Source of the DNA: Candidatus Melainabacteria bacterium 17Bon1m
GTDB taxonomy: Bacteria > Cyanobacteriota > Vampirovibrionia > Obscuribacterales > Obscuribacteraceae
DNA: 64,000 bases
NCBI GenBank assembly: GCA_032128875.1
Contig: JAVLKG010000007.1
Coordinates: forward strand, 288,001 to 352,000
Reading direction: 5' to 3'
Position numbers and translations under genes: made by a program. Below the pieces are notes generated by a model. The model had not been told where the DNA came from. It made no database searches and was given only the letters and a program-made list of their open reading frames with translations. Shown here piece by piece: positions 2,834-50,032 of this stretch (the stretch's first letter is position 1; each line of letters begins with the position of its first letter).

Positions 2834-3948
2834 TCCTGCACCTCAATTTTGTAGTCGGCAGTTTCTGTTTCATCTGCGGAATCTCTTACATCTCCAAAAG
2901 CAGCGTCCCCTGCGGGTTTGAAATCTGGATCAGTACTAGTTTCCTCTGCAGCAGATGTTTCTTCCTCGCCTTCGTATTGAGTCGATAGCGTGCCGGCGTT
3001 AAGCCCCTGGTCCTGCAAATAGCGAACGAGAATTTGTGAGTAGCCGTGCGTGACGAGTATATTTTCAGCACCGGTGAGATGAATAGCTTTCAGCAAGGAC
3101 TGCCAATCGCAGTGGTCGGAGACGGGAAAGCCTTTGTCCAGTGAGCGCCTGCGGCGAATGCCTCGCACGCGCATCCAGCCGGATGCGAAGGCGGCAGAGA
3201 CTGGATTGAGTTGCCTTTGCCAGGGTGTGCCATATGCCGAAGGCGGAGCTAAAACAAGCGCACCTGCGAACTTTGTGCCCCGCGTCATTGACGATAGCCG
3301 TGCAGTTTCGGGCAGCGCGACGCCGGAACTCAAATATACTTGATTCAGTGATTCCACTGCGCCGTGAGTGTAAATTGGTCCGATTGAAGTGTCGACGCCT
3401 TTGAGCAGCCGCTGTGCTTTCCCGAGCGCGTATGCCAGCAGCAGGCTCGTCTTTCCATCTCGCTTGTTTTTCTCCCACCAGGCATTGATGTCGGTGAAGA
3501 GTTCGTCATTGGATTGCCACGCATAGATTGGCAGGCCGAAAGTCGACTCTGTGATAAACGTATGGCAGCGAACAGGTTCGTACGGCGCGCAGGTCGGGTC
3601 CGGGTCGAGTTTGTAGTCGCCAGAAACCGCCCAGACTTCGCCCTTTCGCTCAACACGAATTTGCGACGAGCCCAGTATGTGCCCGGCGGGGTGGAACGAG
3701 ACGGTGGTGTCATTGAGAGTGAGTTTTTGCCCGTAGGGGACGGATTCAATCGGCGCTTCCTGGCCGATGCGATGGCGTAACACCTTGGCGCCCGGCTCGG
3801 CGCAGAGGTATTTGTTGCTGCCCCAGCGCGCATGGTCCGAATGGGCATGCGTCACGATTGCGCGCTCGACTGGGCGCCACGGGTCGATGTAAAAATCGCC
3901 TGCCTCGCAGTAAAGTCCCTTGTCGGTGGCGTAAATAAGCTTACTCAC
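2830..3948 (-). CDS. Ligase-associated DNA damage response exonuclease (MBL/beta-CASP fold)
   Basis: DFYIDPWRPVERAIVTHAHSDHA, PAGHILGS, SGDYK, ITESTFGLP, YALGKAQR, SDHCDW, THG; overlaps the ligase start by 4 nt. Confidence 0.93.
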   Translation of the reverse strand: MSKLIYATDKGLYCEAGDFYIDPWRPVERAIVTHAHSDHARWGSNKYLCAEPGAKVLRHRIGQEAPIESVPYGQKLTLNDTTVSFHPAGHILGSSQIRVERKGEVWAVSGDYKLDPDPTCAPYEPVRCHTFITESTFGLPIYAWQSNDELFTDINAWWEKNKRDGKTSLLLAYALGKAQRLLKGVDTSIGPIYTHGAVESLNQVYLSSGVALPETARLSSMTRGTKFAGALVLAPPSAYGTPWQRQLNPVSAAFASGWMRVRGIRRRRSLDKGFPVSDHCDWQSLLKAIHLTGAENILVTHGYSQILVRYLQDQGLNAGTLSTQYEGEEETSAAEETSTDPDFKPAGDAAFGDVRDSADETETADYKIEVQE

Positions 3949-4233
3949 AACCCTAATTTAAGCGTCTTGTCTGACCAGTTGGTGAACACGTCATTCTTTG
4001 ATCAGTTTTTGTTGCCTCGTTTGCTGCCTCGATGAAATGACAGAGTTGGTCGATGCTTGTTCCTTATACTAAAGAAAACAGTAGAGATCGGCGAAAAAAT
4101 GAAAACGGTCGATTCTGTCGGGGTTTTCGAGCCCAGAGCAAAATCGACCGTTTCGTTGAAGTGGAGGGGTGCGAATTGGAAAACAAACTCGTTAGAGCTG
4201 TTTTCAGAAATCGCGCATTGCCGTCAGTCGATG

Positions 4234-4629
4234 CTACTTGCCGCATGTGCAAGTGCATTTACCGCAAGGCAGATAGACAGGCGATGACGTCGGCTCCGGA
4301 AGTTTTGCAGCTTCGGGGTTGCGAACGTCTGACTGCCTGGTGCCCGTGTGGGGGACTTCGGCGACAGGAGCTGAGGCTTGAGCGTTTTCCTGGGAAACAT
4401 CAGCAGAGACAGACGCCGAGACTTTGTCTTCAGCAGTCTTTCGCTTTCTGGGTTTCCTGGGAGGTTTGCCCGCCGCTTGCTCCAAGATTTCCTTCGCATA
4501 CTTTGCACAGGTGCCGCACTGAGTTCCGACCTTGAGTTCTTGGGTCATCTTCTTCCAGGCGCAGCCGTGCTGTTTTGCGAATTCTTTGATCATGCCGTCG
4601 GTGACGGCGTGGCAGCTACATATCCACAT
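4234..4629 (-). CDS. Bfd-like [2Fe-2S] protein with a long C-terminal extension
   Basis: MWICSCHAVTD...VGTQCGTC matches the Bfd CxC...CxxC pattern; GAGG RBS upstream. Confidence 0.8.
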   Translation of the reverse strand: MWICSCHAVTDGMIKEFAKQHGCAWKKMTQELKVGTQCGTCAKYAKEILEQAAGKPPRKPRKRKTAEDKVSASVSADVSQENAQASAPVAEVPHTGTRQSDVRNPEAAKLPEPTSSPVYLPCGKCTCTCGK

Positions 4630-4872
4630 AGCATTTTCCTCTGCTTAACGAGCGCGGCGCCTAATGTTTCCGTGCAGGAATCAATAACGGCAGCTTTACC
4701 CAAAATCAAAATCGGTTCTTCTGGCAGTGACCGGTCGAGTCGCAGCTATGCCAACGAGATTTCCAACTTGCACGTCGGTTGCACTCCGCAAGGCGGATAA
4801 CTAAATGCAAGGCTGGAGCGTCGGTGTTGCGGTCTGTGTTGAGGTCTTGAAGTCGGAGGTGAAAAAGAAGAA

Positions 4873-4907
4873 CGCTATTACCCTAGAAGATCTCTTCTGG
4901 AATTCAA
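4873..4907 (-). promoter_or_regulatory. Putative promoter TTGAAT-N18-GGGTAATAGC
   Basis: One of four similar motifs upstream of long 5' leaders (see findings). Confidence 0.35.
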
Positions 4908-5439
4908 AAAGCGCTGTACGGGTTTAACAAAGCTCAAGACTGTAATCCTGTCTGGAAAAACGTTTCCGGCTTTTACCGGAGCCAAAATCAAGGAAAACTC
5001 TGAGCCAAAGCTAATTGATAACAGACTCGCGCGTTAGCTCATTTGTGTGCATCGCGTTACTTTGTAACGGACCATTTCATGCTGTGCCAGCTTTCGCGGT
5101 CTCTTGACATAAATTGCGCGCACGAGCCGGTTCATGAGTTTTCAAATCGGCGACTGCGAGATTCTCAACAGGAGTAAAACATGATTGAACAAATTGCTCT
5201 TACTGATAGAGCCAGGTCAGGATTTTCTGCAAAACAGGACGCCAAAGCCCGGGGTCAAAGCGGCAATATAAATGTAGCGCCGAATGCTCTTTTTCAAGGA
5301 CTGGTATGCGTTTTGCGGGTTTCAAAGGGTTTCGTGTTTTCCCCATTGAAAGCGGAAGGGCAAACTTTCATACTGCTGTCATCGCATAGGCTGAATGCGA
5401 TGCCATCCTCCCTCCTAAAAATCTCACGGTATTAAAAAC

Positions 5440-7701
5440 ATGGTAGAACAAACCTCTGCGCTCGGCAGGGGTCAGCAGTCTGCTGCCCTCGACGTGCCAT
5501 CCAATCAGCCCGAAAAGTCTTCCAACATAATCAATGAATTCGCCTCCGGAGTCTGGCAAGGCTCAGTAACCAACAAGGTGAACGGAGTAGCTCAACTGTT
5601 CGGCGCCGACGTCAAAACGCCGGAAGTAAAACGAAACACCGCACAGACAGTGGCTCACACTGCAGGTGAAGTGACCGGCGACTTGATCGACTTCATGATC
5701 ATGACCAAATTCGCTGGCAACGCTCTCGCCAAATTCGCACCCGAAATCGCAGCAACCAGCAAGGTTGGCGAGTATGTTGCACTCAATCCAGTCGGACGCA
5801 ATATGGCTGTTGGTGGAACAGTGGGTCTCGTCAACGGCATGATCTTGACGCCTACAAAAGAAGGCGAAAGCGGTTGGAACAGACTCGGTCGTGGCGTCAC
5901 AGATGCTGCCACCTTTGCCACTCTTGGTGGTGTCGCTACAAAACTCGCGCCGATGGCTGAAGGAACAGGCTTCATGGGTCGCATGAAGATGAACGCCTAC
6001 TCCGGTGCCGCCGCCGGTGTAGTCAACTCCGAAGTCGATGGTTTGACGCACGGACGTCAGGTCGGGCTCGGTGAGATGGCGACCAACACCGCCGCCTGGA
6101 CACTCGGTAACGTCGCATTCGGTGAAGCACTCCACGGACTCGGCGCTGCCAGCAAGAAATTCATGCCGAAGCATGAGCCTTTCGAAGCTAGCGTGAGCAA
6201 TATGTCTGGTCTGAAAGACTGGGAAGTCAACGTCATGAAACGGGACATCGAAGCTGCCAGAGCCAAGGTTGCTGCCAGCACTGGCGCGTCCGAAGCTGCT
6301 GCAAGCACCGGCGCCACCGCCGAAGCTACAGTGATGAGAAGTGTGGCGCACGAACCGCAAGATCCGAAGTTGCTCGAAGGAATTCGCGCAGCGTCTAAGG
6401 GTCACGTCGAAGACGGACATTCGCATGGCGCCGGCAAAGGCGATTTCAAATCGGTAGTCGAAGAAGGAGCAGCGGTAGATCCTGCCAATCCGCGCCGACT
6501 TCAACCTGGCGAGTCTGCCAAAGTCACTGAAGTAAACGGCGGAGAGCCTGTCGATGGCGCACGCGGTGAGAATACTCTTCCCGCCCTGCGTGTAGCAGTT
6601 GCTCCCAAAGAAGGCGAAGTAAAAGTTGCTGTTGAAGGCGACGCTGCCGGTGCTAAGAAGGGCGAAGGCGTTGAAGGCGAAGTCGCGCAGACAAGAGATC
6701 GCACTCGCAACAACGTCATGCTCGACAAGGGCGAAACCTTGAGTATGAGAGAGCTGTACGCTAAAAATCCTGATGAAGCAGACAAACTACTTGCAGAATA
6801 CATGGGCAAACTCGAGAAAGCATTCCCTCTGGAAGGAGAAATCGAGTCGGCTGCAGTCTACAAAGAGTATCTCACCAAGCCGGGCGGAACCTGGGATATG
6901 GTGGTTCTCAGAGACAAAGCGCAGAACATCGTCGGCGGTATTCAGTATCAAGTCATCGATGTAAACGGTCAGCAGATCGGCAAAGCCGCATGGGGCGAGC
7001 ACATCTGGTTGGATGAAGCTTCCAGAAATGCGCCCAACTTCTACGGCTTGCTCAGCATCGCTCGCGAAAGCATTCAAAAAGCGAAAGGCGAAATCGTCTT
7101 CATGGAGTTCAACAACCCAGATAAGATGAGCGTCGAGCAAATGCTCATGGACGAGGCTGCCGGACTATCTGCCAAAGACAGAGAAAAAATCTGGGGTCGC
7201 ACAGGCATTCACGTGCTCGTGGACAGCAAAGGAAAGGTTCTCGAGTATGGTCAACCGGCGATGTCCTCTGAGGATCCGCCCGTTATGTTCCTCTCGCTCG
7301 GTTTCATCTCGACCAAGCCCCTGGGCGGTCAGATGTTGCCGAAAGAAGACTACCTCAAGCTCATGCATGCCGCACACAAGACCATTCCGTCGGTCAATAT
7401 CGAAACTGACGCGACCGTGAAGTGGTACACCGATGCAGTCAATGCGACGGGCGAAAATGCTTTTACCTATGTTCCGTTGAACGCATTGGGAATTGCTCGC
7501 GAGGCTGGTCAAAAGGCTGCTCAAGAAGCGATGCAGAGAGAAACTGCAAAGCACATCGCCAAAGTAATGAGCACGACAGAGCTGAAGGATGCGATCGCCA
7601 AGCTGGTCGCAGAAAACAGAGCAACGCCGGAAGCGCTGCAAGCTCTCGTCGAGCAAGCTGCATTGCAATCAATGCTGGCTGGCGCACGCAAAGGAAAATA
7701 G
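5440..7701 (+). CDS. Large protein: Gly-rich hydrophobic N-module, linker, C-terminal GNAT-like domain
   Basis: 753 aa ORF. C-terminal MVVLRD..IVGGIQY...EHIWLDEASRN..LL...IVFMEFNNP...REKIWGRTG...YGQP resembles a GNAT acetyltransferase fold. Confidence 0.6.
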   Translation: MVEQTSALGRGQQSAALDVPSNQPEKSSNIINEFASGVWQGSVTNKVNGVAQLFGADVKTPEVKRNTAQTVAHTAGEVTGDLIDFMIMTKFAGNALAKFAPEIAATSKVGEYVALNPVGRNMAVGGTVGLVNGMILTPTKEGESGWNRLGRGVTDAATFATLGGVATKLAPMAEGTGFMGRMKMNAYSGAAAGVVNSEVDGLTHGRQVGLGEMATNTAAWTLGNVAFGEALHGLGAASKKFMPKHEPFEASVSNMSGLKDWEVNVMKRDIEAARAKVAASTGASEAAASTGATAEATVMRSVAHEPQDPKLLEGIRAASKGHVEDGHSHGAGKGDFKSVVEEGAAVDPANPRRLQPGESAKVTEVNGGEPVDGARGENTLPALRVAVAPKEGEVKVAVEGDAAGAKKGEGVEGEVAQTRDRTRNNVMLDKGETLSMRELYAKNPDEADKLLAEYMGKLEKAFPLEGEIESAAVYKEYLTKPGGTWDMVVLRDKAQNIVGGIQYQVIDVNGQQIGKAAWGEHIWLDEASRNAPNFYGLLSIARESIQKAKGEIVFMEFNNPDKMSVEQMLMDEAAGLSAKDREKIWGRTGIHVLVDSKGKVLEYGQPAMSSEDPPVMFLSLGFISTKPLGGQMLPKEDYLKLMHAAHKTIPSVNIETDATVKWYTDAVNATGENAFTYVPLNALGIAREAGQKAAQEAMQRETAKHIAKVMSTTELKDAIAKLVAENRATPEALQALVEQAALQSMLAGARKGK

Positions 7702-7763
7702 ACGGCAACCACGCATTCACTCTAAGAGGAAAGTAGTTCACCAAAGATCAAATAGAGATCTAG

Positions 7764-7800
7764 ATCTGCGGATTCGCAGATCGGCAGATCCGCAGAATTT
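7764..7800 (+). terminator. Stem-loop downstream of the 753-aa gene
   Basis: TCTGCGGAT...ATCCGCAGA inverted repeat followed by ATTTT. Confidence 0.4.
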
Positions 7801-8176
7801 GACGGACCGACCTAGGTCATGTCCAGTTGAAGTCAGGCACGCGACAAATAATAAGAGGGTCGAGAAATCGACCCTTTTGCATTGAGATTTAACGACTTCA
7901 AAATCTCATGTCGAGAAAATGCCAAAACAAAATGCGAAAGTTAAAACATCGCACAATTGCTGCTAAACCCCAACTGGTTGGGAGTTTGCTCCAATTGCCC
8001 GCAAGTTTTCCGAAGGAACACGTAAGCCAGGAGAAAGCGTTGAAAGCCACCAAAGTTCGCACATTTAACCGAAAAGTGGGATTTTCACGTATTAACACTC
8101 CCGCAAAATTTCCATACCATAGGTTCCTAAGGACCGCTCTTGCGGATTTCCATCCCCCATCACCTTCGAGAAAAAT

Positions 8177-10360
8177 ATGACTGAAAATGCACCCGCGGTA
8201 CGCCATACCGCGAGAACCCACTTTGCGGGTTTTAGATCAGGTGGAGATAGCTCTCTGGGCTCCAGTAGCGCTGGAAGCGATTCTACAGGTTCGGTAAGTG
8301 CCGAAGTCGGTGGCGAATTGACGTCCCTCACGGGCAACCGTCGCTTTGGTCTTCGCAGCAGCGAGAAGGTGGCCAAGGCCGAAACAACTCCAGTCCGCGA
8401 CTGGCGCACCAACAATCTTTTGGCCGAACAAATCGGCGGTGACATGACACTCACGCCGCTTAACGGCGAATACAATTCAATCTACTCGGCGGCAAACCAG
8501 CTCGGCAAAAGAAAAGCTGGGGATCAAGCGACAGCGCAAACAAGCGATCGCGCGGAGCCGAATCTATACGCATTCAACGGCGCCAAGACCGAAGGTAAAT
8601 TCGATCCGAAGAAGTCGGTAGCAGAGCTGCTTACTGATGCTTCCCTTCAAGGCAAGTTGCGCATCGCCGACCAAGTAGCAAATCCGAACGACGCTGCAAG
8701 AATTGCCGATAGGCTCGGACCTGGCGACAAGCCAAACATCAAGGTTGTCTATCAAGATCATTCAGACAACAACCCTAATAAGCCGCAAGCTGATTTCATC
8801 GTCAAGAAAGATGGAACCATTCAGGTCGTCAACGATCATGAAAGAAATCCCGACAAAGAAATCTGCGTTGTTGTTGAACGCGCCAAGGGTGAAACCGACG
8901 CACCGCCGGCAGCACAGCAAAAAGCAACCGACGAACTGGTCGATTACCTTGCGCAAAGACTGACCGACAAATTCCCCTACCCGCAAGGTGTAGGACCTGA
9001 TGGTAAGCCGCTTGCGCAGGTGCCAATCGAAGACAAACAAAATCTTGTTTCAGACAATCTCGAGAAAAAATTCGGCAATGGCAACAAGCCTGAGGCGCCA
9101 AGCTTGCCTCAAGCTCCCGATATGCCGCAGCCCGCACGTGATATGTCTGATGCGATGAATCGTACCGCAGGCAGTGGTGGCAGCCGCAATTTTGATCGCG
9201 GGGCCGTCGATAACAACTACCCGCAACGCGATGTTCCGCAGGCAGTCAATGAATCTAATGCGGTCAATTCAGTGAAGAACGCGGTTGCTTCAGTGTTCCG
9301 CGGAGAGAACGATACTGTTAGAAAACGCAGCGATGGACGTCACCAAGTCGGGCGATACGGCATGAGTTCTGGGCACTTTGGTGGCTGGCTCGGCGACTTG
9401 CTTGGCTTGGATCTCGGTGATCCGCCGGATATGGCTAAACTGCGCGAATTGCTGAAGAATAATCCAGAACTGCGTCAAAAACTTGCTGCGGCAATGAAGA
9501 AAGCACAGCAGGGTGGGCAAGACGGAAAGGGCACCAAGTTGCCTGAAGGATTTGCAGACAAATTCCAAGTCGGTGCCGACGGCAATTTCAAAGATCAGAA
9601 ATTTGTCGATGGCTTCATGAACTTCGGCGACAAGCTATCCGGCACGAAGGGCGACATCACGAGCGCTGAAGTCAATCAGTTCATGCCGAAAGAACTTCAA
9701 GATATCATGGCGACGGATCGCGTCGAGAAGTACGCTCGCGACATGGGTGTTCAAGACCCGAGCAAAATGACCAAAGAGCAAGCCGGCGTTGTTGGCGTCG
9801 CTATGTACCTTGGTCGCATGCCGAATCAACAAGAAATGCAAGATCCTTCGTACCAAAAATACGCTTCGGATTTCGCGAACATGTATCAGATGGACCGCGC
9901 ACGGGCAACCGGTTTGGGCGACGTCAACGTGTCCGATGCCAACGGCAAAATCACTGCTTTGGCAAATGGCATGGTCGGTCAAAGACTGTGGGCTCAGACC
10001 AAGTACCGCAATTCTGTCGAAGGTGGCAACCTGGGTTGCGCCGCGTCCGTGTCGAAGGTTTTGCAAGATGCAGGATTCAGCTACGCTGACTCTGCCGGCG
10101 TTAACGACCTGGCTGCAAAACTGCAAAGACACGGTTGGCAGCGTGTTTCTGTCAATCAAGCTCAACCGGGCGACGTTATCTACGGTATGAGCGGTGCACG
10201 CCACGGTCACATCGGTATTGTCGGACCAAATGGCATTGCTTACAACAACAGCTCAAGAACCGGTCAGTGGACGGCAGGCACAGTGAGCGGGACATTCACC
10301 CGCAGATTTGGCGGCGCCACCACCGTGCTTCGTCCGCCAGATGCCAACCGCGCTGCATAA
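8177..10360 (+). CDS. Multidomain putative peptidoglycan hydrolase with a C-terminal NlpC/P60-like Cys-His domain
   Basis: C-terminal GCAASVSKVL...AQPGDVI...HGHIGIV...NNSS. Internal amidase_2-like segment (ADFIVKKDGTIQ...ICVVVE...AQQKATDELVDYL). Confidence 0.7.
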   Translation: MTENAPAVRHTARTHFAGFRSGGDSSLGSSSAGSDSTGSVSAEVGGELTSLTGNRRFGLRSSEKVAKAETTPVRDWRTNNLLAEQIGGDMTLTPLNGEYNSIYSAANQLGKRKAGDQATAQTSDRAEPNLYAFNGAKTEGKFDPKKSVAELLTDASLQGKLRIADQVANPNDAARIADRLGPGDKPNIKVVYQDHSDNNPNKPQADFIVKKDGTIQVVNDHERNPDKEICVVVERAKGETDAPPAAQQKATDELVDYLAQRLTDKFPYPQGVGPDGKPLAQVPIEDKQNLVSDNLEKKFGNGNKPEAPSLPQAPDMPQPARDMSDAMNRTAGSGGSRNFDRGAVDNNYPQRDVPQAVNESNAVNSVKNAVASVFRGENDTVRKRSDGRHQVGRYGMSSGHFGGWLGDLLGLDLGDPPDMAKLRELLKNNPELRQKLAAAMKKAQQGGQDGKGTKLPEGFADKFQVGADGNFKDQKFVDGFMNFGDKLSGTKGDITSAEVNQFMPKELQDIMATDRVEKYARDMGVQDPSKMTKEQAGVVGVAMYLGRMPNQQEMQDPSYQKYASDFANMYQMDRARATGLGDVNVSDANGKITALANGMVGQRLWAQTKYRNSVEGGNLGCAASVSKVLQDAGFSYADSAGVNDLAAKLQRHGWQRVSVNQAQPGDVIYGMSGARHGHIGIVGPNGIAYNNSSRTGQWTAGTVSGTFTRRFGGATTVLRPPDANRAA

Positions 10361-10458
10361 GCGACAGGTAGCATTCTCCGCCAATCGCGAAACTGCTGGA
10401 TCGAATTTCCGAGCTGTCGCATAACCGAGCGGTTGCATGACTGCAAATCAAAACCATC

Positions 10459-10640
10459 CATGTACTCCGAAAAAAACTGGTTTTTCGGAGTACATGCTTT
10501 TGTGAGATTGGGCGCTGGTAAGGCTTTTGGTAATCGGCTTTTTTGAGCGCGCCCGCATAGATTTTTGGATTGTCAGCCTGTGGGCGTCTTAGGCTCGCGC
10601 ATCCACTCCGAAAAACCGGGATTTTTCGGAGTGGATGCGC
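10459..10640. repeat. Paired palindromes CTCCGAAAAA-N6-TTTTTCGGAG, copy 1
   Basis: Perfect 16-bp stem at 10459-10496 and 19-bp stem at 10597-10640; a related pair lies at 56598-56758. Confidence 0.8.
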
Positions 10641-10692
10641 ATATCTAAATCCAGAGGGCATAAGTTAACTAAGCTGCTTGGGGTGACCCAAA

Positions 10693-11682
10693 ATGGTTTC
10701 TGAAAAACTTACAGAGTATTCGGTAAACGTAATGGCGTTGGCGCGCATGGAAGCCGAACGCACCGGCAGCGCGAGTGTTGATGTTGAACATATTTTTTTG
10801 GGTCTGCTAGGCGAGGCGTATGGTGTTGCGTCTGAGGTGTTGCGCAAGAATGGACTTCAATTGCACGGTGTTCGAGAGCAAATGTGCGAACAAACAAAAG
10901 AAGAACGTTTGGCTCAAAAAGGCAATTATTCTTTCAGCATTAAAGCTGCGAAAATCCTCAATTCTGCGCTTGAATTTGCGGTTCAAATGGAGAATGAAAA
11001 CATAGACACAGAGCACCTCTTGCTTGCTGTTCTTGCGGAAAAGAATTGGAAAGTTCAGAGAATATTTGACGACTTTGGGGTTGACGCAAATAGGTTGCGC
11101 AGTGATGTTGGGAAGGTTGTGCATGAGCGAGAGTTGAATCCGGCATCCGCTGAGGATGCTGGTTTTGAAGAAGCGCCTCGCAAGAAGAGAGCAATATCTC
11201 CGACCGCGGAGTATTCTTGGCCTTCTACAACGCCGATGTTCTCTCACTTTAATGACTCTGCGATTAAAGTGGTTATGAGGGCGCAAGAAGAAGCAAGGCG
11301 CCTCGGCCACAATTTTGTTGGTACGGAGCAGCTATTGCTTGGTGTTATACCGGACAATGGTTTAGCGGGTAAAGTATTTCGAGATTTAGGCATCACCCTT
11401 ATTGCTGCTCGTCGTGAAGTTGAGAAAATCATCGGACACGGTTCTGGTTTTGTTGCTGTAGAAATACCTTTCACTCCGCGTGCCAAGGGGCTTTTGGTCG
11501 GTGCAATAGACGAAGCTCGCAGTCGTGGTTCTGAAATAATCGGAGCAGAACATATTTTGCTGTCGTTACTCGCCGAGGAAAATTGTGTTAGTACTCATGT
11601 CTTGCAAAATCTAGATGTGGACGCTGGAAAAGCCCGTGGAAACTTGCACAATGCTATGCGACGACCTGTTGTGGATGAGTGA
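10693..11682 (+). CDS. Stand-alone Clp N-terminal-domain protein (two double Clp-N modules)
   Basis: [21 protein letters not shown] and [16 protein letters not shown]; no Walker A/B. Confidence 0.9.
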
Positions 11683-11686
11683 CTCA

Positions 11687-12526
11687 ATGTTCGATAAATT
11701 CAGCAAGGATGCAATTAAAGTGGTCATGCAAGCGCTTGATGAGGCGCGCGTGTTTAAGCACAAAGAAGTAGGATCAGAGCATCTGCTTCTGGGTGTTTTC
11801 GCCTTTTGTGGCGATTCTATTTCGAAGGGTTTTCCGTACCTGGAAGGTGTCGATCTCGATCAACTGCGTGATGCAGTTAGAAATGTGAATCCGAAGGGCT
11901 CCAAAGCTAGCCCCGCCGAGCTTCCATTTAGTGACGAAGCCAAGGAGATACTCGTAAGTGCTTATCAAAAGTCTGGTCACAGCTTGATTTACTCACGACA
12001 CATTTTACTTTCGATGCTTGATAAGCAGAATAGTGTTGGAGTAAAGGTTCTCGAAATGCTTGGCGTTGACCTGGCTCCAGGAGCCGGGGGAAGCGAAGAC
12101 GAGCAGTCCGCAGCTGTCCTTAAATGTGCTCGGGAGGAGGCTCGAAGACTCGGACACAATTTTGTAGGTACTGAGCAGATTTTGCTCGGATTGATACTTT
12201 GCAGGGGAAGTGTCGGCGCGGTTTTAAGTAGGTTTGGAATTGAGGTTGGGTGGGCTCGACAAGAAGTCGAAAAGATCATTGGTCGCGGCTCTGGTTTTGT
12301 GTCCGTCGAAATTCCATTCACTCCGCGAGCCAGGAAAGTGCTGGAATTTGCCTGGGATGAGGCTCGTCAACTAGGACACAATTACATTGGAAATGAACAT
12401 TTGATGCTTGGGATTCTTCGTGATGATACCAGCGTTGCGGCTCAGATTTTGAAAGCGGCTCAAGTCAACACCGAGGAATTAAGAGCTGCTATCCTTGCTC
12501 TTTTCGATCAGCCAGAGGAAGCGTGA
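11687..12526 (+). CDS. Stand-alone Clp N-terminal-domain protein
   Basis: MFDKFSKDAIKV..., [54 protein letters not shown]. Start chosen by analogy with the next paralog; alternative at 11675. Confidence 0.9.
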   Translation: MFDKFSKDAIKVVMQALDEARVFKHKEVGSEHLLLGVFAFCGDSISKGFPYLEGVDLDQLRDAVRNVNPKGSKASPAELPFSDEAKEILVSAYQKSGHSLIYSRHILLSMLDKQNSVGVKVLEMLGVDLAPGAGGSEDEQSAAVLKCAREEARRLGHNFVGTEQILLGLILCRGSVGAVLSRFGIEVGWARQEVEKIIGRGSGFVSVEIPFTPRARKVLEFAWDEARQLGHNYIGNEHLMLGILRDDTSVAAQILKAAQVNTEELRAAILALFDQPEEA

Positions 12527-12535
12527 GGCGATTCC

Positions 12536-13444
12536 GTGTTCGATAAATTTAGCAAGGATGCAATCAAAGTGATTATGCAAGCGCAGGAAGAAGCGCGCAT
12601 GCTGAAACAGCAAGAAGTAGGTTGCGAGCATTTGCTACTGGGAGCTTTTGCTTCTGAAGTGGATTGTTTGCCTGTAGAGTCTGCCAACTCTCGTGACGGT
12701 ACCCTAGAGAAACTTAGGGCTTCGTTTTCGCAACGAGTGAAGAAGGGCGCCAAGCCTAGCCCGAAAGAATTACCGTTTGACGATGATGCAAAGCGCGTGC
12801 TAGTCAGTGCGTATCAAATTTCAGGGCACAAAACGATTTGTGCAAGTCACATTTTTCTGGCGCTGTTTGATTTTCCAGCAATACTGAATGTCTTTCGCGA
12901 TACGAAAATTGACGCGAACGAGTTGCGCTACGCCCTGGTTTATCAAACGCAATTCCACGGGGGGCTGCAAGTTGTTGATGGTTCCTCTGTTTCGCAGCAA
13001 GAAGCCATGGAGCTCTGTCGAGATATCTCAGATGTGATTAGCTTTGCAGTTGCTGAAAGACATAATTTCAAGCAGAAGCATTTGAGTTCTGAGCTCCTTT
13101 TGCTTGGACTTATTCATGCTGGTGGCATGCCCGCTAAAATTTTGGAGAACGCTGGAGTTACGCTGGATTCGGCGCGCGAGCATTTTGTGAAACTGATTGG
13201 TGAAGCTGCTGAACCAGCAGTGGTGGAAGTAAAACTGCAGTTTACTCCGCGTGCCAAGAAGCTATTGCACAATGCCAAGGAAGAAGCGTTTCAGTTGGGA
13301 CAGGATAAACTGAAAGGACTGCACCTTTTGCTCGGATTCACCCATGAGCAAGATGGTGTTGCTTGGCAAGTCTTGCGAGAAAATGGCGTAGATTTAGCAG
13401 CATTGCGAGCGTCTGTGCTAGCTTTATTTGAGGAGACACGTTAG
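12536..13444 (+). CDS. Stand-alone Clp N-terminal-domain protein
   Basis: MFDKFSKDAIKVIMQAQEEAR...EHLLLG and FTPRAKKLL; 5' end nearly identical in DNA to the gene at 11687. Confidence 0.88.
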   Translation: MFDKFSKDAIKVIMQAQEEARMLKQQEVGCEHLLLGAFASEVDCLPVESANSRDGTLEKLRASFSQRVKKGAKPSPKELPFDDDAKRVLVSAYQISGHKTICASHIFLALFDFPAILNVFRDTKIDANELRYALVYQTQFHGGLQVVDGSSVSQQEAMELCRDISDVISFAVAERHNFKQKHLSSELLLLGLIHAGGMPAKILENAGVTLDSAREHFVKLIGEAAEPAVVEVKLQFTPRAKKLLHNAKEEAFQLGQDKLKGLHLLLGFTHEQDGVAWQVLRENGVDLAALRASVLALFEETR

Positions 13445-13455
13445 GGATTTCGCTG

Positions 13456-13905
13456 GTGTTAAAAAACTACACTGAAAGAGCTACATACTCGATTCGGCGG
13501 GCTGAGGAAGAGTCGCGTAAGATGCGACATAACTACATCGGCACTGGCATGATTCTTCTTGGAATTTTGGAAGAAGGCGGCGCGGCAAGTCGGCTACTCA
13601 ATAGTTTTGGTATTACCTACGCGGCTGCACATGAAGAGCTTGAAGCGCTCATTGGGCGAGGCTCTGGTAATCTCGCGGCTGACATTCCGTTTTCACCAAA
13701 TGCGCAAGAGGCACTGGCATTTGCGCGCAAAGAAGCAGAGTCTCGAGAGATAAAAGATGTCGCTGTTCCGCATCTGCTTTATGCGTTGCTGCATGGTAAA
13801 GATACAATGGCTATGCGCGTTTTCGATGTGATGGGAATCAACTTTGATGTGATCAGAAAAAAGGTTGCTGAAGAACTCGATAAGAATTACGGCTCGCGAA
13901 ATTAG
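13456..13905 (+). CDS. Stand-alone Clp N-terminal-domain protein (one double module)
   Basis: YTERA...AEEESRKMRHNYIGTGMILLG, GRGSG..DIPFSPNA, PHLLYALL. Confidence 0.88.
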   Translation: MLKNYTERATYSIRRAEEESRKMRHNYIGTGMILLGILEEGGAASRLLNSFGITYAAAHEELEALIGRGSGNLAADIPFSPNAQEALAFARKEAESREIKDVAVPHLLYALLHGKDTMAMRVFDVMGINFDVIRKKVAEELDKNYGSRN

Positions 13906-13925: not shown

Positions 13926-14195
13926 CTATTTCTTCCGGTCGAACTCTTGATAGGCTGCGCTGTCATTACGGTTTCCGACGACTGTGACATACAGCACAGA
14001 CGAATCAAATCGATAGATAATGCGAAATTCTCCAACGTCTTTCCGGAAATGTTTGCCGTTTCCCATTGATATTGAATCAGTGGGACGTGGTTCATCGCAC
14101 AACTCAGTAATTGCTTTTAGTATCTGCAAAAACTGTTTGTTGTCGCGCTTTTTCAAGAAACGCATTGCGTCATTTGTTAGGTCTGGTTTTAGCAT
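13926..14195 (-). CDS. RelE/ParE-family type II toxin
   Basis: 89 aa basic protein with EPRPTDS, FRKDVGEFRIIY, VTVVGNRND; overlaps the antitoxin gene. Confidence 0.88.
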   Translation of the reverse strand: MLKPDLTNDAMRFLKKRDNKQFLQILKAITELCDEPRPTDSISMGNGKHFRKDVGEFRIIYRFDSSVLYVTVVGNRNDSAAYQEFDRKK

Positions 14196-14442
14196 CGCGA
14201 GTCAGTTTTTCCTTGATGAAACTGGCAGTCGCTTCGGTACCAATGTAACCAGTCTTTTCTGCTACTTCGATTCGTGCCAACCAATAGTCGTTTTCAAGCT
14301 GCATCAGATGCTCGTAATCGGCCTGAGCGATCATAACTGCAACAGGGCGGCCATTTTTCTCGATTGAGATTGGCTCCTTTTGTGCCGCGGCAATCGCTTC
14401 ACTCGTTTTGTTTTTTAGTTCTGTTGCGGTGATTCGTTTCAT
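14170..14442 (-). CDS. Phd/YefM-family antitoxin
   Basis: ITATELKNK...EPISIEKNGRPVAVMI signature. Confidence 0.92.
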   Translation of the reverse strand: MKRITATELKNKTSEAIAAAQKEPISIEKNGRPVAVMIAQADYEHLMQLENDYWLARIEVAEKTGYIGTEATASFIKEKLTRDAKTRPNK

Positions 14443-14729: not shown

Positions 14730-15083
14730 TTAGCCAGCATTCGCGTCCAGCTCGGCGATGAGGCGCTCGAGCTTTTCGACGCGTTTGCAAGCGGCGGTAT
14801 ACGCACCCTGCGCGGCCGCATAGCGGACGCGATAGGGATTGTGCCGATAGCCCCATTTGAAGCTCGAGTAGAGCCTCGTCATGTGGGCGCGGTGCTCGCG
14901 AGCGACTGCGCGATCGGTCTTCGCCTTGATGAGTGCCTCGCGCCGTTCGGCGGAGTTCATCGCACGGAAGCGAGCCGTTTCGGCTTCGTCAGCCTTGCGG
15001 TACTCGCGTTCGAGGTAGAAGTGAAAACCGACCAGCGCCGCTACAGGGAGCAGCGCGGCGGCGATGATGAAGATTGTGGTCAT
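14730..15083 (-). CDS. Hypothetical protein with an N-terminal membrane anchor
   Basis: Hydrophobic N-terminus, GGGAG RBS, codon style matches the operon. Confidence 0.7.
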   Translation of the reverse strand: MTTIFIIAAALLPVAALVGFHFYLEREYRKADEAETARFRAMNSAERREALIKAKTDRAVAREHRAHMTRLYSSFKWGYRHNPYRVRYAAAQGAYTAACKRVEKLERLIAELDANAG

Positions 15084-15099
15084 GTTGTTATGCTCCCGT

Positions 15100-15678
15100 T
15101 CAGAGTGTGAGTTCGTAGCAATTGAGCACGCGCTTGCGACCCTTGTACGTTCCGACCTGCTTGAAGCCGAAGCGAGGGTAGTAGGCGTTGCTGCGCATGC
15201 CGATTGGTGTCTTGAGCGCGACTTTCTCCATGCCGCGTTTACGCGACGCGGTAATCAGTTCGGTGAGGAGAAAGCTGCCGATGCCGCTGCTCTGCATGTC
15301 TTCGGCAACGCCGATTTCATGAAGAGTGGTGGCACCATCTTGGCGGTGGTAGGCGCGCAAGAAGGCGACGATGCGCCCGTCTGCGTCGACCACCACGCGA
15401 ATGCGGTGTTGCGATTTCTCGCCGTCGGCGTTTTGATTTTTCACCGCGTCTTCGACCACCACCCTCGGCAGATAGCCGAAGGATGCGCGATTGTTCTTGC
15501 TGTTGATGATCTTGCGGATGCCGACGTAGTCTTCGACCTGGGCGTCACGCACCGTCAACTTCGTCGAGATTGTCTTCGAAGCGTTAGTTGCGCCTGTCCG
15601 GATCGTCGTCGGCAGCTTGCTGCGATGGGCGATGCAGGAAGGCCCACCAGCAAGAAGTCCGAGTTTTGATTTCGCCAT
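15100..15678 (-). CDS. GNAT-family N-acetyltransferase
   Basis: LHEIGVAEDMQSSGIGSFLL (motif A) and SNAYYPRFGF (motif B); AGAGGAG RBS. Confidence 0.88.
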   Translation of the reverse strand: MAKSKLGLLAGGPSCIAHRSKLPTTIRTGATNASKTISTKLTVRDAQVEDYVGIRKIINSKNNRASFGYLPRVVVEDAVKNQNADGEKSQHRIRVVVDADGRIVAFLRAYHRQDGATTLHEIGVAEDMQSSGIGSFLLTELITASRKRGMEKVALKTPIGMRSNAYYPRFGFKQVGTYKGRKRVLNCYELTL

Positions 15679-15693
15679 TGTCGTCTCCTCTGG

Positions 15694-16332
15694 TTAGCCT
15701 TCGAGCGCCGCTGCGAGCATGCGGTCGTAGGTGACGCGCCGTTCGTAGTCCGTCTTGGGCGGGTTGTAGGGCAGCGCATCCGTGTAGATACGGGCGAAGT
15801 CGCCGGCTTGCGCCTTGCGAATTCGAGCGTTCCACACCTTGATGAGCTGGGCGGCGCAGGCGTCGGGCAGCGGTTCGCGGCGAGTGCGAAACTTGCTGGC
15901 GAAGCGACCCATCCAGCCGTTGCGGCGGACGTTCTCGAAGATTTGAACAATCTCGGGCACGTCGCTCACGCCGGCGGTGCTGATGATGAAGGGCGCCTTC
16001 TCATAGCGGAACGGCATGGTGCTGCCGTTTGCGCCGGGGGCGTCGGAATTTTGTGCGACTTGCCAGCGAATCTCGCTGCGATCGGAGTAGGGAAACGGTG
16101 TCACCGGCGGTGTCAGGTAAACCAGCTTGAAGCCGGCGTCACCACCCTGGACAAACGCGATGCGAGCGCCTTTCAGCTCGTGCACCTTCTTGGGGTGCAT
16201 GAGGTTGGTCTTGTGGCATCCGGTCAAACCGAAGCTGCCGAATTCCCAAAAGGGATCCGAGCGCATCTCGGTGGGGCGCTCCATGTGCGGCTGCCGGAGC
16301 AGCGCGACGAGCACTGTCTGCTTCTTGGGCAT
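15694..16332 (-). CDS. Conserved-looking hypothetical protein, possibly nucleotide-modification-associated (Nmad2/3-like)
   Basis: RSDPFWEFGSFGLTGCH...LKGARIAFVQGG; GGAG RBS before the ATG at 16332. The family resemblance is tentative. Confidence 0.55.
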   Translation of the reverse strand: MPKKQTVLVALLRQPHMERPTEMRSDPFWEFGSFGLTGCHKTNLMHPKKVHELKGARIAFVQGGDAGFKLVYLTPPVTPFPYSDRSEIRWQVAQNSDAPGANGSTMPFRYEKAPFIISTAGVSDVPEIVQIFENVRRNGWMGRFASKFRTRREPLPDACAAQLIKVWNARIRKAQAGDFARIYTDALPYNPPKTDYERRVTYDRMLAAALEG

Positions 16333-16435
16333 GTTTCTCTCCATGAGTTTGTTATGAAAGGAGAGCCACCGCGACTTAACGCGATGGCTCTCGGTTACTT
16401 AGACAAACCGCACAGAGAGGCGCTCTGCGCGATTA

Positions 16436-17989
16436 CTACGCTTCTTTGGCGGCGTTTTCGCCCACCTTCTCCACCTTCTCGGCGACCTTCTCGGCGACGA
16501 TGACGCCGGTCGTGTCCGGGAATGGCACCGCCGCACCGAGCTTTCCGTCTGCATCTTCGAGCAGCCAGCAGTGCCCGTTGTAGCGGTTTTCCTCGATCCA
16601 CGGATTGAGGTAGCTGTCGCAGTGCACGACTTTGTAGCCGAGCGCGACCAGCTCTTTGTGCCATTCGTCGGTGGTCCAGACGCCGAACTCCTCGTTGACT
16701 TCCATCGCCCAGTTGGCGAGGTAGTCTTTCTTCGAGAGGAATTCGTTGGCTTCGTGCAGCGTCATGCGGAAGTGCGTGACGCCGTCGAAGACTCGCTCGT
16801 CGTAAGCGAAGCCGGGTTTCGCCGACTTGCCTTTGAACTCGCGGGCGAACTTGCGGAAGCGCTCCTCGAGTTCTGCGTCCTTGCAACGCAGCCAAACAAG
16901 GCGGTCGCCGTTTTCTGGTTTCACACCATCGCGAATGATGATGCGCCCACCCACCATCAGTTCCAACCAGGCGTTCTTCAACGCCAGCCGGATCTGGTCA
17001 CGGTCGTAGCCGTTGTACGAGTACACCTCGTGCATGACCGACGAGAAGATGATGGTCGACACCGTCCCTTCAGCGAAGCGCTTGTGGATGATGTTGCCCA
17101 TCACAACTGCGACGTTGTGGTTGGGATAATGCTGACCTTCCGAGCGGTGCAGCAGGTCACGCGACAGGTCCATGCCGACGATCTGCGCCTTCGGATAGAG
17201 GTTCGACAGATGAATCAGCAGGGTGCCAGTGCCGCAGCCTTTGTCGACGATGTAGCCGCCGACAATCCAGGGGCAAATGTCCTGAATCTTCACCGATAAG
17301 CTGGCGTCCATGCCCTCGCTGTAGACGGCGAAGTCACGACCGTGCGACAGTTCGCCGTCGTCGTTGAGCAGCACGTCGCTGAAGAGCGTAGCGATACGCT
17401 CTTCGACTTGGTGGCTTTCGAAGACCGCAGCAGTCTCTGCCGTTGCCAGCTTTCGCCAGTCGCCGCGAGTCGCCACTGCCTGAAGCAGGTCGATGGGCAG
17501 CTTGCCGGCGGTGCTGGGCACGATCGCCTTGTAACCCGCTTTGGCGAAGTGCTTGTTGACGTCCGCGTTGGACGAGACGAGCACCGTGTTGGCGGGCGTG
17601 AGGACGGTCGTTTCGTCCGACTCCGACTTCACGACGTCGCAGATGTGCGCCGTCCAAGCCAGTGAATCGGGGATATCCGCGGCAGCATGGATTTCGTACG
17701 GGCGCCCGAGCTTCTTCGCGAAGCCCTCAGCGATGAGCTTGCGCTCGTTGCTGTAGAGCGGGTGCCGCTTGGTGCCGCCTTGCCCGTCCGCCGTGATGAC
17801 GAAGACCAGCTTGCCGGGAACGTGCTTGAGGGCACGCTTGAGCGAGCGTTCCTGGTCTTTGGTGACGCCATGCCAGCGTCCCACGAGGAGCAGATACTCG
17901 GGCTTCACGCCGAGGGCTGCGGTTATCGCCGTGCCGAGAGCTCCCTTCGGAGCGGGTCGGGGCGATTTCTTTACATGAGTCGTGCGCAT
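16436..17989 (-). CDS. Fusion of a degenerate NMNAT/cytidylyltransferase-like domain and a class I SAM methyltransferase
   Basis: N: LLVGRWHGVTKDQ...TKRHPLYSNERK...DIP..AW. C: IVDKGCGTG, VGMDLS, FSSVMHEVYSY, GGRIIIRDG. GGAG RBS before 17989. Confidence 0.8.
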   Translation of the reverse strand: MRTTHVKKSPRPAPKGALGTAITAALGVKPEYLLLVGRWHGVTKDQERSLKRALKHVPGKLVFVITADGQGGTKRHPLYSNERKLIAEGFAKKLGRPYEIHAAADIPDSLAWTAHICDVVKSESDETTVLTPANTVLVSSNADVNKHFAKAGYKAIVPSTAGKLPIDLLQAVATRGDWRKLATAETAAVFESHQVEERIATLFSDVLLNDDGELSHGRDFAVYSEGMDASLSVKIQDICPWIVGGYIVDKGCGTGTLLIHLSNLYPKAQIVGMDLSRDLLHRSEGQHYPNHNVAVVMGNIIHKRFAEGTVSTIIFSSVMHEVYSYNGYDRDQIRLALKNAWLELMVGGRIIIRDGVKPENGDRLVWLRCKDAELEERFRKFAREFKGKSAKPGFAYDERVFDGVTHFRMTLHEANEFLSKKDYLANWAMEVNEEFGVWTTDEWHKELVALGYKVVHCDSYLNPWIEENRYNGHCWLLEDADGKLGAAVPFPDTTGVIVAEKVAEKVEKVGENAAKEA

Positions 17990-18137
17990 AGTTTTTCTCC
18001 TGCAAAGGAATACGGCATTTTCGTGCCGAATTAGACACGACACCGATGGAGCAAATTCATCGCTGAACTTGCAACCATCGGGTCGTATCCGGTGGTCGTC
18101 CTGGCGGACCTGACGACCACCCGGTCGCAGGCTCGCC

Positions 18138-19448
18138 TTACTTGCGAATCGCCTTCTTGCCCTTCAGCGCGGCTTCCACCGTGCGTCGGGTCGGCTTCAC
18201 CATGTTGGCGATGACCGCGTCCGTGAACTTCACCGTGCCGACCTGGTTGCCGTTCTTCATGAACCGCGCCAGATCTCCGGTGGCAGTCTTCGAACGCAGC
18301 GTCTTCTCGATGGCGCGAGTGACGCACACGGCGGCCTCGTCCCAGTCGATGTACTCCAGCATCATGACGCCGGAGAGGGTGAGCGAGCAGGGGTTCGAGA
18401 TACCCTTGCCGGCGATGTCGGGCGCGGTGCCGTGCGTGGCTTCGAACATGGCGCTCTTGGCGCCGATGTTGGCGCCCGGAGCGATGCCCAGTCCGCCCAC
18501 TTGACCGGCTGCGTCGTCCGAGATGTAGTCGCCGTTGAGGTTCGTGGTCGCGATGACCGAGAACTGAGTCGGCTTGCAGAGCAGCTCGTAGAACGTGGCG
18601 TCGGCGATGCGGTGGTTGAGCAGGATCTTGCCTTCCGGCAGCTTGCCGCCATGCACCTTCCAGAGGTCGTCCTCCGACACCATGATGTCGCCGAACTCCT
18701 CAGCCGCAAGCTCCAGACCCCACTTCAGGAACGCGCCTTCGGTGTGCTTCTGGATGTTGCCCTTGTGTACGATGGTCACGACTTTGCGGCCATGGTCGAT
18801 GGCGAACTCGATTGCTGCACGCACGATGCGGCGCGAAGCATACTTCGAAATCGGCTTGATGCCGATGCCGGAGTCTTCGCGGATTTCGTGACCGTACTTG
18901 CGAGCAACGGCGATGATCTCTCGCGCGCCTTCGGAGCCGGCCTCGAACTCGATGCCCGCATACACGTCTTCCGTGTTCTCGCGGAAGATGACCACGTCCA
19001 GGTCCTGCGGGCGCTTCACCACGGACACGATGCCCTTGAAGTAGCGCACAGGACGGACGCAGCTGTACCAGTCGAAGTGCTGGCGCATGGTCACGTTCAG
19101 GCTGCGGATGCCGCCGCCGGTGGGTGTGCCGAGTGGTCCCTTCATGCCGATGCCGTAGTAGTCGAGCATCTCCAGGGTTTCGGCCGGCAGGGGGCTGCCG
19201 AACTTCGCCACTGCTGCGTCACCAGCGTAAGCCGGCAACCAGGTGATGCTTCGTTTGTCGCCATAGCATTTCGCCACGGCGGCGTTGATGATGCGACGAG
19301 TCGCTTCCGAGATTTCCGAGCCGATGCCATCGCCGTCGATGAACGGAATGATGGGGCGGGTCGGTTTCACGGCTTTGCCGTCCACGAGCTGGATGATTTC
19401 ACCAGCCGGGGCGGGCTCGCCGTAGAACTTTCTGACAGGTTTTGACAT
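18138..19448 (-). CDS. icd: Isocitrate dehydrogenase (homodimeric, E. coli-type)
   Basis: IPFIDGDGIG, KGPLGTPTGGGIRSLNV, FRENTEDVYAGIE, VHKGNI, NLNGDYISD, FEATHGTAP. Confidence 0.95.
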   Translation of the reverse strand: MSKPVRKFYGEPAPAGEIIQLVDGKAVKPTRPIIPFIDGDGIGSEISEATRRIINAAVAKCYGDKRSITWLPAYAGDAAVAKFGSPLPAETLEMLDYYGIGMKGPLGTPTGGGIRSLNVTMRQHFDWYSCVRPVRYFKGIVSVVKRPQDLDVVIFRENTEDVYAGIEFEAGSEGAREIIAVARKYGHEIREDSGIGIKPISKYASRRIVRAAIEFAIDHGRKVVTIVHKGNIQKHTEGAFLKWGLELAAEEFGDIMVSEDDLWKVHGGKLPEGKILLNHRIADATFYELLCKPTQFSVIATTNLNGDYISDDAAGQVGGLGIAPGANIGAKSAMFEATHGTAPDIAGKGISNPCSLTLSGVMMLEYIDWDEAAVCVTRAIEKTLRSKTATGDLARFMKNGNQVGTVKFTDAVIANMVKPTRRTVEAALKGKKAIRK

Positions 19449-19671
19449 TTTTCGGACTCCTTTCGTCAGAGTTTTTCAACGAAGAACAGTTGGTCCGTTG
19501 TGACTCGCGTAAGGACGCGCGAGCTGAACAACGGACCGGACAGGCTTTCAGCTAATGGTCGATAGTCAACGCTCGGAGGAATACCCGAGAGAATTGCCGA
19601 AACGATGGTTGGGACTACGTTGTCGGTGTTTGTCTGACTAAAAGCTCCAAGAGTTGAAAGAAAAGAGATAC

Positions 19672-49745: not shown

Positions 49746-50032
49746 TCTCTTCTCGCAATCAAGGCGCAAACAACACAAAGTGTAGTTCTCAGACAGTTTC
49801 CGGTTAATCAAATGCCCGCATCGTGCGAGCAGCCGGAGCCCGTTTGTTTTGCGCCGTAAGGGACCTTAGCAAGACGTTAGGAAACGTCTATGGGAGTCGT
49901 TCGTAGCTCAGGAAAGTTTGATCCCTAGCACTTCGTCAAATCCCGCTTTCTTCCCTTTCTCTAATAAGAAAGCCTGCCTCAAACCGGCGCTTCACCGCAC
50001 CGTAAGACTGCAGGCTGCAAGGAGTTTCTAAA

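Follow-up and report, generated by a model that had tools for sequence, protein, structure and literature searches.

A tandem array of motor-less ClpC-type N-domain genes and its divergence within one bacterial genus

Organization and ancestry of the array

The genome of Candidatus Melainabacteria bacterium 17Bon1m, a relative of the cyanobacteria that does not photosynthesize (hereafter G000; 7.55 Mb in 35 contigs, 50% G+C, 93% complete) contains, in a 64,000-nt stretch that was analysed as a whole (the window; G000:C7:288001–352000), a tandem array of four genes whose products consist of ClpC-type N-domains and lack an ATPase motor. The list of open reading frames (ORFs) of the window places these genes, g1–g4, tightly packed and co-oriented at positions 10693–13905, all on the + strand. 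The first gene, g1 (10693–11682, 329 aa), encodes two N-domains, N1 (approximately residues 1–150) and N2 (approximately residues 182–329), joined by a disordered linker. Two N-domains are also encoded by g2 (11687–12526, 279 aa); its ORF spans 11615–12526, and the likely start was assigned to the ATG at 11687 because this choice fits both the 277-aa orthologue in the nearest relative (G011) and the N terminus of g3. GTG start codons are used by g3 (12536–13444, 302 aa), which has two diverged N-domains, and by g4 (13456–13905, 149 aa), which has one, so that the four proteins contain seven N-domain modules in total. The intergenic gaps measure 4 nt (g1–g2), 9 nt (g2–g3) and 11 nt (g3–g4), and the four genes are probably produced from one operon. 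No promoter-like site was found on the + strand upstream of g1, where site totals fell below the shuffle expectation. The G+C content of the array (0.47–0.49) is near the genome mean, and it is the downstream flank (0.57–0.63) that is the outlier. The proteins are probably cytosolic; neither the Pfam scan nor inspection of the N termini of g1–g4 revealed a signal peptide or a secretion-associated domain.

Clp_N (PF02861) is the sole Pfam family in g1–g4, with scores of 149.1, 139.4, 88.9 and 76.2 bits, respectively (gathering cut-off 20.7; E = 3.7e-44, 4e-41, 2.4e-25 and 2.1e-21). The repeat stretches reported number four, four, three and two, that is, 13 of the 14 expected from two repeats per domain. 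Matches to the NCBIfam models of ClpB, ClpA, ClpK and ClpG are confined to the N-terminal ~150 positions of those models and score far under their cut-offs. None of the four proteins contains a Walker A motif, and no AAA family appears in the Pfam scan. The preliminary description of this locus, made from the sequence alone, had reported four close, co-oriented, ATPase-less genes made only of Clp-N repeats, a description that these data bear out; beforehand it had named a frameshifted AAA+ domain, the sign of a broken clpC, as one case that would refute its interpretation. Such a domain was sought by tblastn, with the AAA+ bodies of ClpC and ClpB from the same genome as queries. No match with E ≤ 1e-3 was obtained in the whole window, and between 7000 and 17000 the search returned chance matches alone (E ≥ 0.44). 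With no AAA+ remnant in any frame, the array is therefore not a broken or frameshifted clpC.

All seven modules are closer to the N-terminal domain (NTD) of the genome's own ClpC than to that of its own ClpB (17–27% identity). Identity to the ClpC NTD is 30% for g1-N1, 56% for g1-N2, 36% for g2-N1, 57% for g2-N2, 32% and 39% for the two g3 modules and 35% for g4. This range agrees with the preliminary description, which had placed some modules near the ClpC NTD (up to 57% here) and called others highly diverged (down to 30%); the ClpC-like peptide strings that it quoted are found in g1 and g2. The best sequence match of g2 in the PDB is the Arabidopsis ClpC1 NTD (5gui, E = 4.8e-44). AlphaFold2 models reached a mean predicted local distance difference test (pLDDT) score of 87.4 for g3, from a 40-sequence alignment, and of 82.0 for g1, with a predicted template modelling score of 0.80. 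A Foldseek search with the g3 model returned ClpC1 NTDs as the top matches, with target-normalised template modelling scores (TM-scores) of 0.86–0.88 and root-mean-square deviations of 1.4–1.6 Å; ClpT2 (4y0c, 0.78) and the C-terminal domain of ClpC2 (0.71) both ranked behind them. The all-helical, pseudo-twofold fold of a Clp N-domain is thus seen in the g3 and g1 models and in the Foldseek result for g3.

In a tree of 60 modules, the array modules fall into five orthologous clades—g1-N1, g1-N2, g2/g3-N1, g2/g3-N2 and g4—with support values of 99/91, 100/100, 100/98, 98/99 and 100/100, respectively. The modules group with the ClpC NTDs of their own class, which are themselves of the cyanobacterial type. 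A phylogeny of each module against the genome's own ClpC had been proposed in the preliminary description, and its outcome is a ClpC derivation with well-supported orthology; the array modules are ClpC-derived in both fold and ancestry. Branches are near zero for the true ClpC NTDs of six other families in the class, whose identity to the ClpC NTD of G000 is 91–97%. Set against this, the 30–57% identity of the array modules indicates that constraint has changed and has not simply been lost. Both g2 modules group with the corresponding modules of g3, so g2 and g3 are whole-gene tandem duplicates, as had been proposed. The 5′ DNA of these two genes, previously described as near-identical, in fact shares 81% identity across 115 nt; overall identity between the two proteins is 38%.

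Functional-site residues and variation across the genus

The NTD of ClpC has two phosphoarginine (pArg) pockets that, according to passages of PMC12583610, depend on E32 and E106, touch the M-domains when ClpC is in its resting state and become covered by MecA. The same passages describe K85 as crucial to the resting state and as a contact of all the cyclic peptides, and place unfolded substrate in the hydrophobic groove of the domain. In the window, the E32 equivalent is Glu in six of the seven modules and Gly in g4. The E106 equivalent is Glu in three (g1-N1, g1-N2 and g2-N2) and R, S, L or P elsewhere, and the K85 equivalent is Lys in four of seven. The groove Phe (F80 equivalent) is retained throughout (7/7). 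No module combines Thr and Glu in both pockets (0/7). The T30/T105, E106 and K85 equivalents are replaced clade by clade. In g4, both pocket Glu positions are replaced (GTGM and VAVPH); among g4 orthologues, GTGM is invariant (7/7) and VAVPH occurs in six of seven, with VAVLH in G006. The site replacements are clade-specific and fixed at the positions that contact pArg, MecA and the M-domains, and at K85. A strict role as pArg receptors is weakened by the pocket compositions and by the lack of an McsB match in the genome (93% complete).

The most conserved stretch of g1 lies outside its folded modules, in the linker, although this segment is predicted to be disordered (residues 152–162 and 164–178 have pLDDT below 50 in the AlphaFold2 model). 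The linker motif (11179–11241, + strand) comprises R163, R166, S169-P-T-A-E-Y174, W176-P-S178, T180-P181 and F183, and these positions are invariant in all 24 aligned sequences, which are 53–98% identical. The segment is a candidate for a docking motif, a degron or a modification site. Translation of the genome in six frames contains only two instances of the pattern [ED]Y[SAT]W[PY], each in the linker of a two-N-domain protein. Elsewhere in the genome, a 403-aa protein (G000:C3:258773–259984) has an N-domain 65% identical to that of the genome's own ClpC, a second, diverged N-domain with the motif YEYSWYEP just before it, and a hydrophobic C-terminal tail that resembles a membrane anchor.

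A search with g3 recovered full-length orthologues (46–54% identity) in 5 of the 12 other genomes of the genus and in none of 18 genomes outside it; G002, another member of the genus, has an array that lacks a g3-type gene. The synteny check that had been suggested at the outset showed the same flanks on both sides of the array in six genomes of the genus (G000, G011, G007, G006, G009 and G002), so that at least these six share the locus. In a seventh, G004, the array is a 3.5-kb contig without flanks. Gene number per array ranges from three to five. G011 has the same four gene types as G000 (329, 279, 302 and 149 aa), G007 has five genes (316, 329, 153, 305 and 152 aa) and G009 has four (338, 306, 320 and 152 aa). 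Three genes are present in G006 (329, 305 and 160 aa), G004 (311, 306 and 149 aa) and G002 (378, 330 and 153 aa). All four reading frames are intact in G000 and in relatives. Among the genomes searched, the array is specific to one genus, and it is long-standing.

Selection was assessed by comparing orthologues of G000 and G011 for synonymous divergence (dS) and for the ratio of nonsynonymous to synonymous divergence (dN/dS). For g1, dS is 1.24 and dN/dS is 0.07; for g2, 0.88 and 0.14; and for g3, 1.51 and 0.27. Synonymous sites in g4 are saturated (dN = 0.32), so dN/dS is not computable. Seven flank genes have dS of 0.12–0.45 and dN/dS of 0.02–0.17; an additional flank gene, u4053, was left out because its codons were aligned out of register (proportions of nonsynonymous and synonymous differences both 0.70 at 87% amino-acid identity). 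Purifying selection acts on all four array genes, and at synonymous sites they differ from the nearest relative 2–10 times as much as the flanks do; the fairest comparators are the upstream genes (dS 0.27–0.45), with a G+C content similar to that of the array.

At the nucleotide level, similarity to G011 is continuous from 2705 to 12657 and resumes at 14584; between these points there is one short patch, at 13321–13583. Database matches of g3 fall from 98% and 89% identity to 53% or less, and those of g4 from 97% to 61% or less. Together, g3 and g4 are a deeply divergent allele (46–58% identical to their orthologues; 46–54% for g3 within the genus), whereas ClpS is 100% identical between G000 and G011. 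By contrast, g3 and g4 of G007 and G011 are 80% and 87% identical, respectively, about as conserved as the flanks (85–92%), and fast turnover is therefore not general. The best description of these data is that deeply divergent haplotypes are exchanged at a conserved locus, rather than that the array evolves uniformly fast.

A toxin–antitoxin (TA) cassette adjoins the array and varies in position. In the window, a ParE/RelE-like toxin gene (13926–14195, − strand) is convergent with g4 and overlaps, at 14170–14195, a Phd/YefM antitoxin gene (14170–14442, − strand). Phd exceeds its Pfam cut-off (43.1 bits, E = 3.5e-11) and ParE_toxin does not (18.9 bits, cut-off 23); together, the two small overlapping genes with family matches qualify as a type II TA pair. 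The cassette is absent from four related arrays (L027, L028, L029 and L048). In G009, it lies inside the array between genes 3 and 4, with ParE 93% and Phd 81% identical to the copies here.

Possible roles of the array

The modules share the two-repeat helical fold of the NTDs of ClpC and ClpC1 (5gui; Mycobacterium tuberculosis 3wdb and 8b9u; Bacillus subtilis 5hbn), but the array proteins are without the AAA+ D1 and D2 modules, three of the four carry two N-domains per chain, and their modules show far greater divergence than true ClpC NTDs do across the class. Passages of PMC10030653 describe actinobacterial ClpC2, an antibiotic sponge and pArg-sensitive repressor, as related to the ClpC1 N-domain but motor-less: it binds ClpC1 N-domain ligands, consists of an N-terminal dimerisation domain and one ClpC1-NTD-like domain, and represses its own promoter; action of the motor-less ClpC2 through the binding of such ligands is likewise described in part of PMC13345244. 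ClpC2 and the array proteins have in common the lack of a motor and homology to the ClpC1 NTD, and the comparison is one of analogy. The array proteins consist of N-domains and short linkers without an extra N-terminal domain, and are encoded in a multi-gene array; in the PDB sequence search, ClpC2 chains matched g2 much more weakly than the ClpC1 NTD did (E = 7.7e-15 versus 4.8e-44). Plant ClpT1 and ClpT2 are described in passages of PMC7966870 as ClpC-type N-domains that stand alone, bind the ClpP ring and are unique to algae and plants. The architecture of a single stand-alone ClpC-type N-domain is common to these plastid proteins and g4, and in sequence g2 resembles ClpT chains weakly (E = 1.3e-6 and 1.4e-4).

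Motor-less proteins with several Clp_N domains are common: 5,925 of 8,000 scored candidates (180–576 aa) match g1 at E ≤ 0.001, and in a protein atlas Clp_N-only clusters of ~451–454 aa are commonest in Melainabacteria. Such uncharacterised proteins in cyanobacteria, Chloroflexota, planctomycetes and other Melainabacteria have two or three motor-less N-domains, as here; the array differs in that its modules are spread over three to five adjacent genes at one locus, with traceable orthology and allele-like divergence. Other layouts in the class include a tandem gene pair (260 and 280 aa) in which both products have a single N-domain and a ~120-aa C-terminal extension (L049, G013:C6), and single genes with three N-domains, of 472 aa (L050, G028) and 455 aa (L051, G025). 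Some distant relatives carry TIR_2, EAD1, EAD7, AAA_16, Robl_LC7, ClpX zinc finger or UVR domains, none of which is present in the array. Phages, too, encode N-domain proteins that lack an ATPase (PHROG 35667; gp251 of Mycobacterium phage Myrna, with a coding sequence of 708 nt). PHROG 35667 matches all four array proteins (E = 5e-16 to 4.5e-45), but the phage proteins have one N-domain and a further stretch of ~80 residues, at 38% identity. Motor-less homologues of the ClpC NTD (ClpC2 and ClpT) and abundant multi-N-domain proteins are thus already known. The literature matches listed, mostly on plant SMXL and HSP100 proteins, include no description of bacterial tandem Clp-N gene arrays, and a tandem, genus-wide, allele-like battery with module-level specialization was not met in the literature searched.

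We tentatively favour the possibility that the array encodes soluble ClpC-NTD paralogues that compete for, or regulate, ligands directed to the N-domain. A decoy or adaptor role of this kind is the most economical account, and the variation of the locus between relatives would lend it some indirect support. The array proteins would act by binding, competing with or substituting for ClpC's own N-domain for docking molecules, which could be adaptor proteins, degron-bearing or unfolded clients, the ClpC M-domain or foreign molecules that target the N-domain of ClpC. The outcome would be that ClpC–ClpP proteolysis is tuned or shielded. The ClpC-like modules g1-N2 and g2-N2 would be the best candidates for true competitors, and the diverged modules g1-N1, g2-N1, g3 and g4 would probably have acquired new specificities. 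The invariant, disordered motif of g1 might serve as a tethering or degron peptide, like those of AAA+ adaptors. ClpC2 and ClpT would be the functional precedents, by analogy. Because the alleles at this one locus diverge so deeply, variation in the ligands is suggested as well. An immunity-like decoy battery, shuffled by recombination, that protects an essential proteolytic hub from phage proteins, toxins or cyclic peptides, with old alleles kept by frequency-dependent selection and moved with the TA cassette, is decidedly less probable.

Several points weigh against a role as competitors or regulators at the ClpC N-domain. The genome (93% complete) has no match to the McsB family or to the MecA family, and two classic N-domain ligands are therefore not evident; its only ClpS is encoded beside clpA. 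The fusions of relatives in other phyla to TIR, EAD1, EAD7 and AAA_16 domains point to uses outside Clp proteolysis, and PADLOC assigned no family to g1–g4 or to four neighbouring proteins. The raised synonymous divergence of the array can arise from gene conversion among paralogues or from mosaics in the assembly of metagenome-derived genomes. Four RNA-labelled public runs from one sample hold 99% of the sampled words of the locus, but their contigs extend over 16–148 kb at even depth across genes on both strands; these runs therefore behave like DNA and have no word on transcription.

Among the other explanations, we consider it unlikely that the proteins are positive co-factors, either adaptors that deliver substrates to ClpC or ClpT-like subunits that assemble or gate a mixed ClpP/ClpR core. 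Mixed cores are likely in this organism, because the genome has six ClpP-family matches, and the binding of plant ClpT1/2 to the ClpP ring (passages of PMC7966870), together with the match of the g3 model to ClpT2 (TM-score 0.78), is consistent with such a function, as is the composition of g1 and g2, in which one ClpC-like and one diverged module with a conserved disordered motif would fit a bridging adaptor. However, the sequence likeness to ClpT is far weaker than that to the ClpC1 NTD (E = 1.3e-6 and 1.4e-4 versus 4.8e-44). A core-assembly factor would also be expected to be conserved, whereas gene content varies here, g3 and g4 are only 46–58% identical to their orthologues, with ClpS 100% identical to that of the nearest relative, and the g3 search did not find the array in the 18 genomes outside the genus. 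Loss of most ClpC signature residues in some modules would fit functionless, decaying leftovers of duplicated clpC genes, but the intact frames here and in relatives, dN/dS values well below 1, replacements fixed per clade, the absence of AAA+ debris and the confident models make decay the least credible of the explanations considered.

A further explanation is a conflict locus, a variable island resembling an immunity locus, whose modules would bind peptides as sensors or decoys directed against phage proteins, toxins or natural products and largely independent of ClpC. Consistent with this are the contrast in dS between array (0.88–1.5 or saturated) and flanks (0.12–0.45) for the same pair of genomes, the loss of similarity to the nearest relative between 12657 and 14584, the abrupt fall in database matches of g3 (98% and 89% to ≤53%) and g4 (97% to ≤61%), the variable gene number (3–5) and the different places of the ParE/Phd cassette in two arrays. 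Relatives fused to TIR_2, EAD1, EAD7 and AAA_16, ClpN repeats in one vWA conflict system (in passages of PMC7159879) and Clp-N-only proteins encoded by phages (PHROG 35667 and Myrna gp251) point in the same direction. Yet PADLOC returned no match, there is no effector, NTPase or nuclease gene within the array, the arrays of G007 and G011 are about as conserved as their flanks (80% and 87% versus 85–92%), and related genomes are non-independent samples; we therefore regard this explanation, too, as doubtful. Some members of this bacterial class are predators, and the proteins might act as effectors, secreted or injected, in mimicry of the ClpC docking head of a cyanobacterial or plastid prey or host. 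The best PDB match of g2 is indeed a chloroplast ClpC1 NTD, and the large upstream neighbours have no assigned role, one having a borderline NlpC/P60-type end. Mimicry is nonetheless very improbable: the modules group with the ClpC NTDs of their own class, the Pfam scan and N termini reveal no signal peptide or secretion domain, and no secretion system is linked to the locus, a lone TrbI match elsewhere in the window scoring 23.2 bits against a cut-off of 35.

Stand-alone ClpC docking domains are very common in databases, yet to our knowledge only two kinds of them, actinobacterial ClpC2 and plastid ClpT, have been studied. The locus described here is a natural dissection of the ClpC N-domain: its seven modules have diverged to different degrees, each with fixed changes where ClpC activation is controlled, orthologues are at hand for comparison, and a linear motif is conserved in one module pair. 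Should the modules compete for N-domain ligands, they would provide a toolkit with which to map ClpC docking in the cyanobacterial lineage, for which passages of PMC7966870 list only ClpS and NblA as adaptors. The allele-like divergence would exemplify conflict-type evolution acting on the receptor domain of a housekeeping protease. If the modules are ordinary regulators, they would be a modest addition to Clp biology.

Neighbouring genes, repeats and the Clp inventory

The array lies between a gene for a 727-aa protein, which forms the conserved left flank (8177–10360, + strand), and a GNAT gene. The C terminus of the 727-aa protein is of a borderline NlpC/P60 type (Amidase_5, 21.4 bits at a cut-off of 21; CHAP, 19.7 bits at a cut-off of 26). 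A 753-aa neighbour upstream has no Pfam match, and searches of the PDB by sequence gave no match for either protein. Of the setting outlined in the preliminary description, the TA pair therefore stands, with Phd above and ParE below its cut-off, and the effector-like character of the upstream genes was not confirmed. A 588-aa paralogue of the central part of the 727-aa protein is encoded directly downstream of clpA in G000 (G000:C2:696388–698154), G011 and G007. In two other genera (L077 and L079), three tandem copies of its NlpC/P60-like end lie 3–4 kb from clpS, and two further genera showed none within 9 kb. That these relatives recur beside Clp N-domain genes may be due to old synteny or may point to a functional connection.

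The 333-nt gap between the 727-aa gene and g1 contains two copies of a palindromic repeat, one with a 16-bp stem at 10459–10496 and one of the same family at 10597–10640. The repeat core, CTCCGAAAA-N-TTTTCGGAG, occurs in 21 copies genome-wide, often in pairs 135–155 bp apart. Contigs of the RNA-labelled runs end at 10606–10637, most of them at 10609–10611. Since this shared break falls inside the second palindrome, it results from assembly and does not mark the end of a transcript.

Beyond the array, the genome encodes a full ClpC (865 aa; G000:C7, ~118.6 kb), a full ClpB (904 aa), one ClpS beside clpA, the ClpP-family proteins mentioned above and six further motor-less Clp_N frames. At the clpS–clpA locus (G000:C2:698585–701405, outside the window), clpA is broken by one in-frame TGA in the linker between the N-domain (a 176-aa frame) and the AAA+ body (a 656-aa frame in the same frame). 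Seventeen loci were examined, 16 of which gave a match; the stop is at the same place in four (G000, G004, G006 and G009), and the other 12 are uninterrupted. Its identical position in four genomes indicates that the stop is inherited and is not a sequencing error. Either the codon is a read-through site, or ClpA is made in two pieces, one of them a free-standing N-domain.

Two blocks of the window, at 15000–19500 and 50000–54000, have a G+C content of ~60% in this 50% G+C genome. The first of them includes genes for a GNAT protein, a methyltransferase and an isocitrate dehydrogenase, whose products are 93–100% identical to those of the nearest relative. At the left edge of the window (3–3948, − strand), a DNA-repair cluster encodes a DEAD/Lhr-type helicase whose gene continues beyond the window, an ATP-dependent DNA ligase and a weakly matching protein of the metallo-beta-lactamase fold.

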